A DNA stretch of 64,000 nt from Bacillota bacterium (lineage in GTDB: Bacteria; Bacillota; Dethiobacteria; DTU022), in contig JBFMGD010000003.1 in the NCBI GenBank assembly GCA_040751775.1, positions 19,201-83,200 on the forward strand, read 5' to 3'. Below are positions 1-10,514 of this stretch, piece after piece. The notes below the pieces were generated by a model. The model was not told the origin of the DNA. It ran no database searches and saw nothing but the letters and a program-made list of their open reading frames with translations. Positions within the stretch are counted from its first letter, which is position 1; each line of letters opens with the position of its first letter. Position numbers and translations under genes: made by a program.

Positions 1-1119
1 ATTGCGGAACTGGAGCGGGAAACCCGCCACGACGTGGTCGCCTTTACGCGCTGCGTGGCCGAATCTTTAGGTGAAGAGAGCCGCTATTTTCATTATGGCT
101 TGACCTCTTCGGACGTGGTCGACACGGCCCAGTCGGTCTTGCTGCAGGAGGCGGCCGCCCTGATCAAAGATGGCCTGACCGCGCTGCGCGCCACCCTGGC
201 GGAGCAGGCGCGGCGCTTCAAGAGCACGCCCGTAATCGGCCGGACGCACGGTATGCATGCCGAGCCGACCAGCCTTGGCCTCAAGTTCGCCCTCTGGTGG
301 GCGGAAGCGGGACGAAACCTGGCGCGCCTGGAACGGGCCGCGCAAACCGTTCGCGTCGGCAAGCTATCCGGGGCTGTGGGAAACTATGCGCTGATCGATC
401 CCTTTGTGGAGGAATATGTCTGTGAGACGCTGGGCCTGGAGGCGGCGCCAATATCCACCCAGGTGCTGCAGCGGGACCGCCATGCCGAATTCGTCTCCTG
501 CCTCGCTTTAATCGGCGCCTCCCTGGAAAAGATTGCCCTGGAAATCCGCCTCCTGCAGCGCACCGAAGCGGGAGAGCTGGCCGAACCTTTTTACCGGGGT
601 CAAAAGGGTTCATCGGCGATGCCCCACAAGCGCAACCCGGTTGCCTGCGAGCAAGTTTGCGGCCTGGCCCGCCTGCTGCGCGGTTATGCGCAGGCGGCGC
701 TGGAAAACGTGGCCCTCTGGCACGAGCGCGATATCTCCCACTCTTCTGTCGAGCGGGTAATCCTGCCCGACAGCACGATCCTGGTGGATTACCTGCTGCA
801 CCAAATGGTGAGGGTCACGGGTGAATTGCATGTCTACCCGGAGCGGATGGCGGCCAACCTGGCGCTGACAGGCGGCCTGGTTTTCTCCCAGCGGGTGCTG
901 CTGGCCCTGGTGGACAGCGGCCTTTCCCGGGAGACGGCCTACGACCTGGTGCAGCGCTGCGCCATGGAGTCCATGGAGAGCGGCATCCCCTTTCAAGAGC
1001 TGCTCGGGCGGGAGAAGCAGGTCAGCGAGCGGATCAACGCTGCTACGCTCGAGGCATGCTTTGATCCCGGTTACTACCTGCAGCGGGTAGATCTGATCTA
1101 CAGCCGCCTGGGCCTTTAG
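1..1119 (+). CDS. purB: Adenylosuccinate lyase (5' end outside window)
   Basis: Frame is open from base 1 (IAELERETRHDVVAF); GRTHG, GSSAMPHKRNP and WHERDISHSS motifs; first gene of the pur cluster. Confidence 0.97.
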   Translation: MAELERETRHDVVAFTRCVAESLGEESRYFHYGLTSSDVVDTAQSVLLQEAAALIKDGLTALRATLAEQARRFKSTPVIGRTHGMHAEPTSLGLKFALWWAEAGRNLARLERAAQTVRVGKLSGAVGNYALIDPFVEEYVCETLGLEAAPISTQVLQRDRHAEFVSCLALIGASLEKIALEIRLLQRTEAGELAEPFYRGQKGSSAMPHKRNPVACEQVCGLARLLRGYAQAALENVALWHERDISHSSVERVILPDSTILVDYLLHQMVRVTGELHVYPERMAANLALTGGLVFSQRVLLALVDSGLSRETAYDLVQRCAMESMESGIPFQELLGREKQVSERINAATLEACFDPGYYLQRVDLIYSRLGL

Positions 1120-2871: not shown

Positions 2872-5066
2872 CGGGAAAAGGATGGCGCCAACTGGGTTTG
2901 ACCGATGATGAATATAAGTTAATCTGCGCCGATCTGGGCCGCGATCCCAACCGGGCTGAATTGAACATGTACAGCGTGATGTGGTCCGAGCACTGCAGCT
3001 ACAAGCATTCCAAGTCAAGCCTGCGGCTCTTCCCCACCGAGGGGAAACGAGTGCTGCAGGGGCCGGGTGAAAATGCCGGGGTGGTCGATCTCGGCGGCGG
3101 CTGGGCGGCGGCCTTTAAAATTGAAAGCCACAACCACCCTTCGGCTGTTGAACCTTACCAGGGAGCGGCCACGGGAGTGGGCGGGATCATCCGCGACATC
3201 TTCACCATGGGCGCACGCCCGGTGGCGATGCTGAACAGCCTCCGTTTCGGTACACTGGATGATGCCCGCGGGCGTTATCTTTTTGACGGGGTGGTGGCCG
3301 GCATCGGTGGTTACGGCAACTGTATCGGCATCCCTACCGTCGCCGGCGAAATCTATTTTGAACAATGTTACAAGGGTAACCCGCTGGTCAACGCCATGTG
3401 CGTCGGTGTTTTGCCCGTCGAGAGGCTGGTGCTGGGCAAAGCCGCGGGAGCCGGCAACCTGGTGGTGCTGGTCGGAGCGCGCACCGGCCGGGACGGCATC
3501 CACGGCGTTACTTTTGCCTCCGAAGAGCTCTCCGAGGCCTCGGAAGAGAAGCGCCCTTCGGTGCAGGTGGGCGATCCCTTCCTGGAAAAGCTGCTCATGG
3601 AAGCCTGCCTGGAGGTGATCGAGCAGGGCCTTGTCGTGGGGGTGCAGGATCTGGGCGGCGCCGGCCTCACCTGCGCGGTTACCGAAACAGCCTCCCGGGC
3701 GGGAACGGGTATTGAGCTGGACCTGGACAAAGTGCCGCTGCGGGAAGAGGGAATGGAACCTTTTGAGATCATGGTCTCCGAATCGCAGGAGCGGATGCTG
3801 CTGATCGTGGCGCCGGAGCAAGCGGCGGCTGTGGAGGCCGTGTTCAAGCGCTGGGGCCTGCTCTACACCGTGATCGGACAGGTGACCGGCGACGGGATGA
3901 TCCTGGTCAACTACCGGGGAGCGGTCGTGGCTCGTGTTCCGGCGGCCAGCGTGGCCGGGGGAGCGCCGGAATATGAGCCGGCAGGAAAAGAACCGGCCTA
4001 CTACCGGCAGCTCTCCGGGTGTGATCCGCTGGACCTGCTTGCGATTGACGACTACGATTTGGCGCTGCGCAAGGTGCTCGGCTCGCTCGATATCGCTTCG
4101 AAGGAGTGGGTCTGGCGCCGCTACGACCACATGGTGCGCACCTGCACCGTCCAGGGACCCGGCGGGGATGCCGCGGTGATCCGGCTGCGTGAAACCGGGC
4201 AGGCGCTGGCAATGAGCGTGGACGGAAACGGCCGCCAGGTCTACCTGGACCCGTATAAAGGCGGCATGATGGCGGTGGCCGAAGCCACGCGCAACCTGGC
4301 CTGTGTCGGCGCCGAACCGCTCGGCATTACCGACTGCCTCAATTTCGGCAATCCGGAAAAGCCGGAGATTTTCTGGCAATTCAGGCGAGCCGGGGAAGGG
4401 ATGGCCGAAGCCTGCCGGGTACTGGAGGTGCCGGTGGTGGGCGGCAACGTCAGCTTTTACAACGAGGTGGAGGGCGAACCGATTTTCCCCACCCCGGTGG
4501 TGGGGGCTGTGGGTCTGCTGGAAAGCCCGGAGCGGCAGTGCACCGCCGCATTCAGGCAAGCAGGGGACCTGGTCTTTCTTATGGGCGCCGGGAAGCTTTC
4601 ACTGGGCGGCAGCCAGCTGCTGAAAGCGCTCGGTCAAGCCGTGACCGGGTTCTTGCCGCCAATTGACCTGGAGCTGGAAAAGCGGCTGCAGGAGCTGCTG
4701 CGCCGGGCGGTGCGGGAGGGCATTCTCGCCTCGGCCCACGATCTCTCCGACGGGGGATTGGCCGCGGCGCTGGCGGAAAGCTGTATCGCGGGCGGCCTGG
4801 GGGCAATTGTTCAACTGGTGGAGCATCCGCGGCCCGAGCTGCCGCTCTTCGGAGAAGGCCCTTCACGTGTGATCGTTTCCCTGGATCCGGCCAACCGGGA
4901 GAAGCTGGCGGCCCTGGCCGATACGCTGGCGGTACCGCTGGCTGAAATTGGACACGCCGGTGGAGAGCGCCTGGTAATAAGCATGTCAAGCAAAAAGTTA
5001 ATCGACACGCCGGTCGGCGCGCTGAAGAAGGTCTATGAGGAGGCTTTACCGTGCGTGATGGAATAA
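2868..5066 (+). CDS. purL: FGAM synthase subunit PurL (small type)
   Basis: [47 protein letters not shown]. Confidence 0.98.
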
Positions 5067-6466: not shown

Positions 6467-6710
6467 TTCCCTCCTTTCAAAAGGGGTAGGGGTGACCCGG
6501 TCTTGATCGACACTAATGACCTGGTCCGGCGGGATAAAATTTCCACTGCATCTGCCTGCCGGTTGTTATATAATATGGTTTGCGTTCTTGAGCTTGCACT
6601 TGCGGAAAAAGACGCGGCTATATTTTTTCGGAAAAAGCAGGGATTTTCGCTGTTGATCCTGTATTTATTAAGCTGTAAATTTGTCTTACGGACCGAAGGA
6701 GGATAATGAA

Positions 6711-8690
6711 ATGGAGAATTACTTGTATGCGGTGCCGCTAACCGCCCTGGTTGCGCTGGTGTTCGCCCTGATCCTTTGGACCCGGGTGAGCCGGGCGGAC
6801 GCGGGCACCGACCGGATGAAGGAGATCGCGGGCGCGATCCACGAGGGCGCCATGGCTTTCATGAAGCGGGAATATACCTATCTCGCCGTCTTCGTGGTGG
6901 TTTTAACCGCGGTTCTCGCTGCAGCCATTAACCCCTTGACCGCGGCCAGCTTTGTTGTCGGCGCCGTCTTGTCGGCCCTGGCGGGCTATGCGGGGATGAA
7001 GGTAGCCACCAGCGCCAATGTGCGCACCGCCAACGCCGCCCGGCACGGGGTCAATCCGGCCCTGACGATGGCGTTTTCCAGCGGCACGATTATGGGTATG
7101 ATGGTGGCCGGCCTGGGCCTGCTTGGTTTGGGTATTCTTTATATATTCATACGCGATCCCGCGGTGGTGAACGGTTATGCCCTGGGAGCCAGTTCGATCG
7201 CCCTCTTCGCCCGGGTCGGCGGCGGCATCTACACCAAGGCCGCCGATGTCGGCTCCGACCTGGTCGGCAAGGTTGAAGCGGGTATCCCCGAGGACGACCC
7301 CCGCAACGCCGGCGTAATCGCCGACAACGTGGGCGACAATGTCGGAGACGTGGCCGGCATGGGCGCCGATCTGTTCGAGTCTTACGTCGGATCGATGATT
7401 GCCGCGATGACGGTCGGAGTAGTTGCTTTTAATGTTAAAGGGTTGGCTTTTGAAGCGGCCCTGCTGCCGTTGCTGGTGGCCTCCGTCGGTATCCTGGCCT
7501 CGGTCATTGCCTTTTTCTTCGTCAGGGCCAGGGAAGGCGTCCGCCTGGGGGCTGTCCTAGAACGGGGGATTATCGTCAGCTCGGTGGTGGTTGTGGCCGC
7601 CTCCTACTTTATCACCCGGTTTGTCCTCGGCGAAATGGGCCCCTTCTACGCGGTTGTGGCTGGGCTTTTTGCCGGCGTGATCATCGGCCGGATTACCGAG
7701 TATTATACTTCGGCACACTATAAACCGGTCCAGGCGATCGCCAAAGCTTCACTGACCGGCCCGGCTACCAATATCATCAGCGGCATCGCCGTGGGGATGA
7801 AGAGTACGATGATGCCTATCCTGGCGATCGTGGCGGCGATCCTGGTTTCGTACCACTTCGCCGGCGTCTACGGTATCGCCATCGCCGCGGTGGGGATGCT
7901 TTCCACCGTCGGCATGACCGTGGCGGTCGATGCCTACGGGCCCGTGGCCGACAATGCCGGCGGCATCGCCGAGATGGCGGAGTTGGAAAAGGGTGTGCGC
8001 AAGATTACTGATGAGCTGGATGCCGTGGGCAATACCACCGCTGCGATCGGCAAAGGTTTTGCCATCGGTTCGGCGGCGCTGACCGCCCTGGCTCTCTTTA
8101 CCGCTTATTCCCAGGTGGCCGGGTTAAGCGTGATCAATATTACCGACGCGCGCGTGATTGCCGGCCTGTTGATCGGTGGAATGCTGACCTTCTTCTTTAC
8201 CTCGCGGACCATGGAAGCGGTCGGCAACGCCGCCTTCAGCCTGATCGAAGAGATCCGGCGCCAGTTTAAAGAGATCCCCGGGCTGATGGAAGGCAAAGCG
8301 AGGCCCGAGTATGCCCGCTGCGTCGATATCAGTACCCGGGCCGCTCTTAAAGAGATGGTCCTGCCCGGCCTGATGGCGGTAGTGGTGCCCCTCGCTGTGG
8401 GCTTGATACCATTCCTCGGCAAAGAGGCGCTGGGCGGCCTGCTGGCCGGCTCGCTGGTTACCGGGGTGCTCCAGGCGATCAACATGGCCAACGCCGGCGG
8501 CGCCTGGGATAACGCCAAGAAATTCATTGAATCCGGCGAATACGGCGGCAAGGGCAGCGAGCCCCATAAAGCGGCCGTGGTGGGCGATACCGTCGGCGAC
8601 CCCTTCAAGGACACCGCCGGCCCCAGCCTGAACATCCTGATCAAACTGATGAGCATCGTGGCCCTGGTCTTCGCCCCGCTGTTCTTCTAA
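6711..8690 (+). CDS. hppA: Membrane-bound pyrophosphatase, K+-dependent, probably Na+-translocating
   Basis: [40 protein letters not shown]; GNTTAA (Ala, K+-dependent class); ADLFESY gate Glu at the Na+-PPase position; ATG 6711 after AAGGAGG. Confidence 0.93.
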
Positions 8691-8716
8691 ACTTAGCGCT
8701 TTAGGTTATCCGGTTA

Positions 8717-8752
8717 AATTAGGGCACTTCCTTGCGGATGTGCCCTTTAATT
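8717..8752 (+). terminator. Probable intrinsic terminator of hppA
   Basis: AGGGCAC(T)TCC-ttgc-GGA(T)GTGCCCT stem followed by TTAATT. Confidence 0.6.
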
Positions 8753-8770
8753 AGGCCAAGTCCCCCTTTT

Positions 8771-8811
8771 TGGGACAAGTGGGACAAGGGGACAGGTTCC
8801 TTGTCCCACTT
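8771..8811 (+). repeat. REP-like hairpin copy A (doubled left arm)
   Basis: TGGGACAAG-TGGGACAAG-GGGACAGGTTC-CTTGTCCCA; 13-bp stem 8777-8789/8799-8811. Confidence 0.9.
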
Positions 8812-8820
8812 AATTTTATA

Positions 8821-8867
8821 TGCAATGGGACAATGGGACAAGGGGACAGGTTTCTTGTCCCATTGCA
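8821..8867 (+). repeat. REP-like hairpin copy B (doubled left arm)
   Basis: TGCAA-TGGGACAA-TGGGACAAG-GGGACAGGTTT-CTTGTCCCA-TTGCA; alternative 12-bp and 13-bp stems. Confidence 0.9.
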
Positions 8868-8902
8868 ATGTTAATGGTAAAATGGTGCTGAGGTGACTAA
8901 TA

Positions 8903-9664
8903 ATGCCAAGGCATGCGCGGGAAAGAAGTGAAACCGGAATCTATCATGTTATCCTTCGCGGTATTAATAAACAAACAATATTTAAAGATGAAGTAGATAA
9001 AGAAAGACTTTTCGAGACTCTAAAGCGTTTTAAAATGGTTAGCCTCTATGAACTCTATGGTTATTGTTTCATGAACAACCATATTCACATTCTCATTAAA
9101 GAGACAACAGAACCAATCTCATTAGTAGTTAAACGAATCATTAGCAGCTATGTTTACTGGTATAACTGGAAGTATGAACGGTGCGGGCACTTGTTTCAAG
9201 AACGATTCAAAAGTGAAGCTGTTGAAAACGATCGCTACTTTTTAACTGTTCTCAGATATATTCATCAAAACCCGGTGAGAGCGGGAATAGCAAAAAAAGT
9301 GTATGATTTTCGATGGAGCAGCTTCCAAGAATACATGAAAAAACAGGTCATAACAAACATTGACTTCGCATTAGATATGTTTTCAGCGGATAGACAAAAA
9401 GCAATTATACTGTTTGAGGCATTTATGAACGAGCAGAGCAATTACTTATGCTTGGATTATGATGATAAGACACGGGTACCGGATAGTGAGATTAAAGCTA
9501 TTCTTTTAAAGAAAGGCGTCTCTGATATAAACGAATTACCCCGGCTTGAAAAGCGTAAAAGGGATGAGATTATCAATGCACTTAAGTCAATAGAGGGTGT
9601 AACAATCAGGCAACTGTCACGCTTAACCGGAATCACCAAGAGTGTTATTGGCAGGATCCAGTGA
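8903..9664 (+). mobile_element. REP-associated tyrosine transposase (RAYT/TnpA-REP, Y1_Tnp HUH nuclease) with C-terminal HTH-like extension
   Basis: YHVILRGINKQ, HUH motif MNNHIHIL, LFQERFKS, catalytic-Tyr region YIHQNPVRAG, WSS; C-terminal TIRQLSRLTGITKSVI; visibly AT-rich versus flanks; bracketed by palindromic repeats. Confidence 0.9.
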
Positions 9665-9710
9665 AACTGGGACAAGGGACCTGTCCCCTTGTCCCACCTT
9701 GTCCCAGTTT
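9664..9710 (-). repeat. REP-like hairpin copy C (inverted relative to A and B)
   Basis: Minus strand reads AAAC-TGGGACAAGG-TGGGACAAG-GGGACAGGTCC-CTTGTCCCA-GTTT; 14-bp outer stem 9664-9677/9697-9710; overlaps the RAYT stop codon. Confidence 0.9.
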
Positions 9711-9716
9711 ATAGTT

Positions 9717-10514
9717 TTAGCCGGTAAACTCCTTCCGGTTCAGAAAGCGAAAGCCGAGGCCGGTGCCGAGCAGGAAAAGCAGCAGCAGCACTGCCATCCC
9801 GGCCAGAAACGGTTCGCCGGCTACGGCGTCTTCCAGGGCCGCGTAATGGTAGAGATTGATATACTTGAGGAAGGCCAGCTTTTCCGTCAGTTTGCTCAAC
9901 GCGTCGATGATAAAGAAGCCGAACCCCAGCCCCACGCCGAGGGATGTTGTCCCCTGCACCGTATTGATGAAAGGCGCGGCGGCGAAAGCGATCCCCCCTA
10001 CCGCCAGGGAGGCCAGGAAGCCCGCCAGGTGCACAAGGAGCTGCCCCGAGGGGTCAAAATCGCCGGGAGCGGTCGCTGAACCCACGGCCAGGGAGGCCCC
10101 GTAAAGCAGCGCCCAGAGCAGCAGGTTCAGGAGCAAGAAGAGGGCCGTTTTAGAGGCCATAATGCGGCTCCGGGTAAGCGGCCGGGTGAAGAGGAATTCG
10201 GCCGTGTTCAGGTCCGCTTCGCGGCTGATCAGGCGCCCGGCCAGCATCGCGGTATAGATCAAAGCCAGGAGCAGCGCGTACTGCATGACCATGCCGGCAT
10301 AGTAAAGGTTAATGTCCTGGAAGAGGCTGCCGGTAATATTGAACGCATCTTTGATCGTGTCCGGATATCCCTCCAACAGTTTGGCGAATTCAGGGTCCTG
10401 CATATAGGGGAAGAACGGCAGGTAAATCGCGATAATCAGCAAGACCACGCCAGCCCAGATCAGGAAGCTGCGCCGGTTGAGCCGCAGCTCCTTGCGGATA
10501 ATATTATAGGACAT
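9717..10514 (-). CDS. ABC-2 type exporter permease
   Basis: About six hydrophobic segments; ISREADLNTAEFLFTRPLTRSRIMASK signature; overlaps the ATPase gene. Confidence 0.85.
   Translation of the reverse strand: MSYNIIRKELRLNRRSFLIWAGVVLLIIAIYLPFFPYMQDPEFAKLLEGYPDTIKDAFNITGSLFQDINLYYAGMVMQYALLLALIYTAMLAGRLISREADLNTAEFLFTRPLTRSRIMASKTALFLLLNLLLWALLYGASLAVGSATAPGDFDPSGQLLVHLAGFLASLAVGGIAFAAAPFINTVQGTTSLGVGLGFGFFIIDALSKLTEKLAFLKYINLYHYAALEDAVAGEPFLAGMAVLLLLFLLGTGLGFRFLNRKEFTG

Follow-up and report, generated by a model that had tools for sequence, protein, structure and literature searches.

A probable TIRtron-type cassette in a Bacillota contig: a Y1/HUH nuclease gene between inverted hairpins with a conserved loop

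The nuclease gene and its flanking hairpins

The stretch of DNA analysed here, 64,000 nucleotides of contig JBFMGD010000003.1 (positions 19,201 to 83,200, forward strand) from a Bacillota bacterium and hereafter called the window, contains a low-G+C cassette of about 940 bp (8771-9710), where a gene for a TIRYT-type, RAYT-like Y1/HUH nuclease of 253 amino acids (aa; 8903-9664, + strand) is bracketed by three hairpin units, at 8771-8808 (+), 8826-8862 (+) and 9668-9706 (−). The explanation moderately favoured here is that of a TIRtron-type cassette with cognate inverted hairpins, in which a doubled hairpin arm is a recurrent scar, most likely not required; in this explanation, the nuclease gene is chromosomal, horizontally acquired and part of the TIRYT clade, with a putative C-terminal helix-turn-helix (HTH) domain. 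A previous sequence-only reading of the window had described an AT-rich Y1/HUH gene with two direct units upstream and one inverted unit at the stop codon, as well as a doubled arm and two alternative folds in each unit, and all of this was recovered at the same positions, both folds being perfect helices.

The 5' arm is present twice in all three units, which follow the formula TGGGACAA(G/GG) - TGGGACAAG - GGGACAGGTYY - CTTGTCCCA and were delimited by repeat search and folding as single-stranded DNA (ssDNA). The distal upstream unit 1 (8771-8811, +) possesses an extra 5' arm TGGGACAAG (8771-8779), the 5' arm TGGGACAAG (8780-8788), the conserved loop GGGACAGGTTC (8789-8799) and the 3' arm CTTGTCCCA (8800-8808). 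The gene-proximal unit 2 (8821-8867, +) has the same order, with an extra arm TGGGACAA (8826-8833), the 5' arm TGGGACAAG (8834-8842), the loop GGGACAGGTTT (8843-8853) and the 3' arm CTTGTCCCA (8854-8862), and its outer stem pairs 8821-8833 with 8855-8867, reaching out to TGCA/TGCA. The downstream unit 3 (9664-9710, −) is inverted, with its extra arm at 9706-9698, 5' arm at 9696-9688, loop at 9687-9677 and 3' arm at 9676-9668; its outer stem, formed by 9664-9677 and 9697-9710, begins at the last base of the stop codon (9662-9664). The two arm copies are spaced 9, 8 and 10 nt, start to start, in units 1, 2 and 3, respectively, and the loop, as it had first been parsed, begins with GGGACA, which is a third direct copy.

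The 20-nt core GGGACAGGTNNCTTGTCCCA occurs three times in the 64 kb, compared with 0.04 expected, and three copies were not reached in any of 100 shuffles; no core hairpin was found in the window beyond the three flanking units, in agreement with the earlier claim. The ssDNA folding energies range from -13 to -16 kcal/mol per unit (z = -3.9 to -4.8), with -15.7 kcal/mol (z=-4.8) for unit 1, which was also scored as terminator-like, with a T-rich tail. An Rfam scan of 8600-9800 returned chance miRNA-model matches alone, far under threshold, thus the hairpins are not a known RNA family.

As either 5' arm can pair with the single 3' arm (repeats I6/I22 in unit 1, I7/I10 in unit 2 and I5/I13 in unit 3), the spare arm could act as a conformational switch, giving the 3' arm two folds and gating cleavage or expression. 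The perfect helices of 9-14 bp available to both folds of every unit are in line with such a role, as is the minimum free energy fold, built on the inner arm in unit 1 but on the outer one in the other two units, at the low ensemble frequencies of 0.05-0.21; however, the spare arm is missing in 75-90% of the family, including the flanks of close orthologues, and neither spacing nor copy number is conserved, as they should be in a required switch. The switch is therefore considered very improbable.

Regarding the protein, its assignment is based on Pfam, fold matching and homologue alignment. The Y1_Tnp domain (PF01797) is matched with E=4e-13 and 49.9 bits, against a cut-off of 23, and the nuclease motifs comprise the HUH motif H60-I-H62, the catalytic tyrosine in Y119-IHQNP and WSS at 138-140; among these, H60, H62, Y119, N123, P124, W138 and S140 are invariant in the 34 homologues aligned. 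The open reading frame (ORF) is an intact Y1/HUH nuclease of the RAYT lineage. The AlphaFold model (pLDDT 87) has as its best Foldseek match the E. coli TnpA-REP in complex with a REP hairpin (4er8; E=2.8e-8, TMt 0.74), followed by ISDra2 and IS608 TnpA with E of about 1e-5 to 1e-4, and a full-length profile search of PDB sequences returned 4er8 as the sole match.

The C-terminal region, from about residue 190 to 253, is a helical HTH-like domain, the last 68 residues being modelled as a five-helix bundle, and its signature R236-Q237...T242-G243..K246-S247 is invariant across the same 34 homologues. Its Pfam matches are weak and all below the cut-off (HTH_5, HTH_23, HTH_28 and Trp_repressor, in 3-22 of the 34 members), and its best PDB neighbour, the DnaA DNA-binding domain 3pvp (TMq 0.59), is not significant at E=1.5. 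Profile matches of this domain to protein A among PDB sequences were spurious repeat matches and were discarded. More than 5000 homologues of about 252 aa were found, almost all from Bacillota among the matches listed with an organism name, and their source annotations read 'transposase' or 'REP element-mobilizing transposase RayT'. One homologue, P0115 (59% identity), has 385 aa and the extra nucleotidyltransferase-type Pfam domains PF18765 and PF01909, being either a true fusion or a gene-call merger.

A conserved loop on a free stem and its relation to TIRtrons

Around 90 orthologous loci were compared, including 80 metagenomic loci at 44-60% identity. The loop GGGGAC(A/G)G(G)T.., with 9-13 nt, is conserved across these loci, while the arms of the 6-10 bp stem vary from locus to locus and stay complementary, as in GATACAA/TTGTATC, CAGACAG/CTGTCTG and TGCACAG/CTGTGCA; 53 distinct perfectly complementary arm pairs enclose the loop motif. 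Close orthologues (71-74% identity) located in unrelated contexts carry the same hairpin, and most of the flanking hairpins (68 of 78) are on the + strand when upstream or on the − strand when downstream, with the loop-bearing strand running 5'->3' towards the gene at both ends.

A non-circular pairing test was applied to 105 distinct instances chosen by the 10-mer GGGACGGTTC alone, with a fixed register picked for maximal pairing. In these, 72.7% of the stem cells are paired, compared with 48.4% in shuffles, none of 500 reaching the observed value, and 35-50% when the register is slid; covariation is scored at 0.576, against 0.199, and all 7 stem pairs show changes on both sides. Such strong covariation indicates that the hairpin is real and that the stem is selected for pairing, not for sequence. 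The hairpin is thus an element with a conserved loop and a free stem, and the arm-loop-arm parsing proposed before is borne out by the orthologues. An inner hairpin of GGGACAGG and CTTGTCCC (stem of 8 bp, loop of 3 nt), tagged by the GGGACA that precedes it, was also considered and rejected, because the outer arms co-vary in orthologues and GGGGACRG is fixed.

The system had been put forward as a candidate for an undescribed mobile or self-processing one, a claim that does not stand. RAYT-like genes flanked by inverted repeats instead of GTAG-REPs have been named TIRYT/TIRtron (Di Nocera, De Gregorio & Rocco 2013, PMC3733652), and most TIRYTs constitute subclass 2.1 of the TnpA-REP-like or TnpA-Y1 proteins (Quentin et al. 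2018, PMC6006769). According to the first study, many TIRYT flanking repeats share GGGGWSAS and lie at similar distances from the gene, and dimeric repeat families are present in some genomes (PMC3733652). In the second, subclass 2.1 is the second largest TnpA-REP-like group, with 14.9% of strains; its members have a conserved serine motif and, at the C-terminus, a domain like Bac_DnaA_C, HTH_23 or HTH_28, and REP-like structures are reported as not found near its genes (Quentin et al. 2018, PMC6006769).

When compared with TIRYT sequences from Additional file 5 of Di Nocera et al. 2013 (PMC3733652), the window nuclease has 35-36% identity to pca3049 and sml4509 over 147-148 aa (E=3e-30 and 2e-32), and 26% identity to the E. 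coli RAYT over 120 aa (E=3e-9). In addition, GGGGWSAS can be fitted in every unit, as GGGGACAG at 8788-8795 and 8842-8849 and as its complement CTGTCCCC at 9681-9688 on the + strand. On alignment grounds, the nuclease is closer to the published TIRYTs than to canonical RAYTs and groups with the TIRYT class, corresponding to subclass 2.1, and the protein identities, together with the match of GGGGACAG to GGGGWSAS, place the locus in a kind of system that is already described.

Shared with TIRYT/TIRtron are the MPR...YH..RG N-terminus, the WSS motif after Y-x3-NP, a C-terminal extension that may be of the HTH type and the GGGGWSAS inverted repeats around the gene, which in the published description are found at a fixed distance upstream and overlap the gene end downstream, forming moderately abundant families in some genomes, often as dimers. 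Besides these similarities, there are differences. The published flanks are treated as terminal inverted repeats, whereas those described here are hairpins, conserved in the loop and co-varying in the stem; the C-terminal domain of the Bacillota clade does not align with the C-termini of pca3049 and sml4509; and one-sided arm iteration and promoter overlap were not found in the available portions of PMC3733652 and PMC6006769. What is new relative to the published class is therefore the conserved loop on a co-varying stem, the promoter overlap and the recurrent one-sided extra arms. Full-text literature matches for the hairpin motif strings contained nothing relevant, and the name TIRYT appears there in just two works.

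The E. coli TnpA-REP, or REPtron, with its REP/BIME elements (Nunvar 2010; Ton-Hoang 2012; Messing 2012, PDB 4er8), is the best structural match and has the Y1/HUH chemistry in common. In both systems, cognate hairpins are inverted around the gene, and the gene is chromosomal and rare on plasmids; hairpins dispersed through the genome and also arranged as inverted pairs (REPIN-like), as in E. coli, are seen in other Bacillota genomes, but not in the 64 kb of the window. In contrast, it is the stem that is conserved in the E. coli REPs, together with a 5' GTAG tag recognized by the enzyme, whereas here conservation lies in the loop and the stem varies freely, and no GTAG (canonical tag 5' GT[AG]G) adjoins any of the three window units. 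The proteins also differ in length, with 253 aa and an extra HTH-like domain here compared to 165 aa in the E. coli RAYT. For the Bacillota TIRYT clade, the hairpin, fixed in its loop GGGGAC(A/G)G(G)T and free in its stem, represents a concrete candidate substrate.

The gene-proximal hairpin is also linked to the start of the gene. A promoter-like site is present at 8855-8883 (+), with a -35 box TTGTCC (8855-8860), a 17-nt spacer and a TG-extended -10 box TAAAAT (8878-8883), followed by the ribosome-binding site GAGGTG (8890-8895, +) ahead of the ATG, and the 3' arm of unit 2 contains its -35 box. In a set of 77 distinct upstream regions from orthologues, the loop motif is located at most 130 nt from the start codon in 60 (median 63 nt), and TTGNNN-16..18-TANNNT starts at most 14 nt past the loop motif in 45, 16 of which possess a perfect -35 TTGACA; the -10 box typically ends 18-19 nt before the start codon (L126-L205). 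As the hairpin overlaps the -35 box, a nuclease bound there would sit on its own promoter. The sequence pattern suggests a sigma-70-type promoter and a hairpin- or protein-coupled autoregulation.

This overlap, along with the C-terminal domain, could also be read as an iteron system, where the repeated arms are duplex binding sites for an HTH resembling DnaA domain IV, placing the nuclease or tuning the repression of its promoter. The domain is conserved and HTH-like, the DnaA DNA-binding domain comes closest to it in structure, and the 9-mers bound by DnaA are close in size to the 8-10-mer repeats seen here; that structural match, however, is the non-significant one given above, most hairpins lack an extra arm, and the distal and downstream hairpins, away from the promoter, are doubled too. 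Furthermore, R236, Q237, T242, G243, K246 and S247 are invariant while the arms differ completely between loci, which makes it more likely that these recognition-helix residues read the conserved loop. Iterons are thus regarded as an improbable explanation of the repeated arms.

Extra arm copies and how they may arise

In the window-type clade, the canonical unit consists of one GGGACA-NN arm and the core; 128 of the 176 cores have the arm at offset -8. Among the 163 dispersed copies, 24 possess yet another GGGACA-like hexamer upstream, and so do 5 of the 13 copies that flank a gene, including the three of the window itself. As seen in the wider collection, hairpins with a single arm make up about 76% of those at orthologue loci and 85-93% of the dispersed copies. 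The closest orthologue (74% identity) has one single-arm flank and one doubled flank; at locus L001, the upstream copy is single-arm and the downstream copy doubled, and at L002, the upstream arm is truncated and the downstream copy single-arm. With orthologues and flanks collected, the doubling is absent from most copies, the outcome that the earlier reading had named as refuting, and is thus neither defining nor required. The window locus is an ordinary member of the family.

Where extra copies occur, they fall almost only on the 5' side of the hairpin, distal to the gene. Of 131 hairpins, 20 show the 5'-arm hexamer again at most 30 nt upstream and 3 show the 3'-arm hexamer again at most 30 nt downstream (binomial p=5e-4); leaving out the arms that contain GGAC changes this to 19 versus 3, across 42 distinct arms without similarity to the loop, and adjacent copies (gap of at most 6 nt) are found 30 times in 315 on the 5' side and 4 times in 315 on the 3' side. 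Unrelated arms show the same pattern, such as ggatgacat twice (L153), agtgtcaa twice (L185), cgaaccagg three times (L160) and tagtgtgtca three times plus a variant fourth copy (L186), with three copies downstream in L154, L184 and L201. The extra copies carry 0-4 loop bases in 26 of 38 cases, their spacing is 7-39 nt outside the window, compared with the 8, 9 and 10 nt in it, and many are set off by 3-6 unrelated bases, not being exact tandems.

This recurrence in unrelated loci and the one-sidedness indicate that arm copying is reproducible and not a quirk of the window locus, while its minority state and variable form indicate a by-product of a directional process instead of a conserved functional module. 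Of the two roles first offered for the doubled arm, that of a reproducible by-product is thus favoured over that of a switch, and the earlier claim is half right, the doubling being reproducible and asymmetric but no defining architecture.

In the favoured explanation, the enzyme would recognize the loop sequence displayed on its stem in ssDNA, cutting and rejoining there, and the same activity in trans may maintain or spread the hairpins, while binding at the proximal hairpin would autoregulate transcription. The arm copy would result from the 5' arm, on the side away from the gene, being duplicated locally and in tandem, frequently along with 0-4 bases from the beginning of the loop; this would happen at the arm-loop junction when a hairpin nicked or processed by the nuclease undergoes out-of-register repair or replication. 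In the window clade, the arm GGGACAAG, which resembles the loop start GGGACAGG, may help this duplication. The one-sided signature may mark the site of action of the enzyme, and the role of these domesticated-looking nucleases becomes approachable by oligonucleotide assays.

Several points weigh against it. The cleavage site of TIRYTs, their strand preference and their recognition of ssDNA or double-stranded DNA are all inferred, and the NCBIfam equivalog model for RAYTs (REP_Tyr_transpos) scores the nuclease at 64.6 bits, under its cut-off of 80. The zero dispersed copies in 63 kb of the window mean that mobilization in trans is not evidenced in the source genome. Extra arms are more frequent in orthologue, mostly gene-flanking, hairpins than in dispersed ones (16/68 versus 4/59, Fisher p=0.013), a comparison confounded by the differences in collection and clade between the two sets and by the selection of the dispersed set with a fixed 3' arm. 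Moreover, the three junctions in the window differ by 1 nt and could derive from one doubled ancestor instead of independent events, and plain slippage between the arm and the loop GGGACA could explain the window clade without any nuclease.

Slippage in its general form, a nuclease-independent mispairing of slipped strands during replication where a stable hairpin stands beside short direct repeats (the arm GGGACAAG and the loop GGGACAGG), is possible but rather unlikely as an account of the arm copies. The window clade fits it, as its arm and loop start share GGGACA in two or three tandem imperfect repeats with a period of 8-10, and the flank of units 2 and 3 extends the complementarity of the outer arm, which gives the inner copy the look of an insertion separating arm and loop, as predicted; variable copy number and period also agree with it. 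However, the one-sidedness survives the removal of GGAC-containing arms, in the 42 distinct arms unlike the loop, many copies are not in exact tandem, and arm copies are commoner in gene-bearing loci, in the comparison qualified above.

A nuclease-driven variant, which as a whole is held to be unlikely, places a nick in the loop or at its 5' edge, in the style of a rolling-circle origin and unlike the IS200 or REP site. The free 3' end, with the arm and the first loop G's, would be re-extended or re-ligated out of register, leaving iterated 5' arms as visible scars, and fold-back or re-templating would copy one arm from the other, so that the stems change together and the loop stays fixed. If true, this would make the hairpin a DNA element that processes itself, with a stem evolving through conversion driven by the nuclease and not by selected compensatory point mutations.

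Circovirus and geminivirus rolling-circle origins have a stem-loop with a conserved nonanucleotide loop, adjacent iterons and an HUH Rep. The likeness to these origins is one of layout only, with a variable stem, a conserved loop and one-sided short direct repeats, and an HUH nuclease having a separate duplex-binding module. In contrast to them, the cassette has no replicon and no helicase domain, the fold is of the Y1 transposase type and not of the Rep type, and the repeats are identical to the stem arm and, in most cases, lacking.

Insertion, dispersal and neighbouring features

The cassette occupies the intergenic interval 8691-9716, between two convergent genes, an H+-pyrophosphatase gene to the left (6681-8690, +) and an ABC-2 permease gene to the right (9717-10514, −). 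The G+C content is 34-39% in the nuclease gene and 34-45% in the gene plus flanks, compared to 60-67% in the surroundings. In the syntenic relatives L206 and L207 (permease 74% identical), the same convergent pair is 137 bp apart, against 1026 bp in the window, and this short spacer and the low G+C indicate that the cassette was inserted; the exact boundaries are not definable, as the intergenic DNA of L206 and that of the window are too diverged. The ENA sample of L206 and L207 also has a 72%-identical nuclease gene at a separate locus (L006), and orthologous nuclease genes occupy unrelated genomic contexts. Look-ups by exact protein sequence gave no record for the nuclease, the permease or the pyrophosphatase of the window.

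Insertion, low G+C and unrelated contexts would also be expected of an active autonomous insertion sequence (IS) of the IS200/IS605 type, with the extra arms as a target-site or transposition footprint. IS608 and ISDra2 TnpA share the fold and the catalytic motifs of the window nuclease, and the subterminal ssDNA hairpins used as recognition elements by these IS can be counted as a likeness to the window hairpins. Nevertheless, their left and right ends are not mutually inverted, they are multicopy and common on plasmids, their transposases have about 130-150 aa and a guide sequence at the foot of the hairpin determines where they are cleaved; none of these traits was seen here, the window cassette having one copy in 64 kb, inverted ends and a 253-aa protein. 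In addition, nuclease relatives are nearly absent from plasmids (2 distant matches in 72,556 records), none was matched in the phage collection searched, and up to four arm copies occur. A target-site duplication was rejected as the source of extra arms, because the outer extra arm at one end is inverted, not direct, relative to that at the other. The active IS is, consequently, the explanation given the least credence, being highly improbable.

Regarding dispersal, a scan of one genome per species with the pattern GGGACRGGTNNCTTGTCCC matched at least 119 stretches in Bacillaceae, Clostridia and Negativicutes, the hosts of core hairpins among the matches listed including Fredinandcohnia, Falsibacillus, Virgibacillus and Metabacillus, Pelotomaculum and Syntrophomonas, and Sporomusa; Falsibacillus pallidus FAL1 (NZ_CP158866.1) and Fredinandcohnia species are examples of Bacillaceae with many core hairpins. 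The nuclease gene is present in only about 12 of the 126 loci examined. Gene-less inverted pairs, 10-90 nt apart, were found in L011, L012, L046, L065, L069, L078, L081, L093, L111, L113 and L124, and every pair seen is convergent (+ then −), as around the gene. These pairs look REPIN-like, as miniature derivatives of the cassette, and together with the dispersed copies, they indicate that the hairpin family behaves like REPs and REPINs. Besides the candidate substrate, the comparison thus provides a dispersed hairpin family, including gene-less inverted pairs, in Bacillaceae and Clostridia, and a built-in link between hairpin and promoter.

Other arrangements were noticed in single loci. On L018, a 1145-bp contig of Bacillus massilionigeriensis, five core hairpins with a conserved 3' flank AGYACGTAAGTGCTGATAGGAAGGA lie within 1.1 kb, either as a dense cluster or as a larger composite repeat containing the hairpin. 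L071 (5583-6635) has two direct and two inverted hairpins around about 950 bp, each outer hairpin with an extra arm; the bracketed segment has no ORF above 81 aa and no tblastn similarity to the nuclease, and may be a decayed cassette or a cassette with non-coding cargo. A PhdYeFM/ParE toxin-antitoxin pair adjoins the orthologous nuclease gene in two unrelated loci (L002, 2303-2939; L006, 3085-3670), and in L006 the nuclease gene is directly downstream of a group II intron reverse transcriptase, and is followed by another RAYT-like sequence, a short fragment occupying 2938-3177 (36% identity over 80 aa). In the window, an 11-bp inverted repeat with a 4-nt loop (AGGGCACTTCC / GGATGTGCCCT, 8721-8746) is located 30 nt past the pyrophosphatase stop codon, upstream of the cassette, and is probably the native terminator of that gene.

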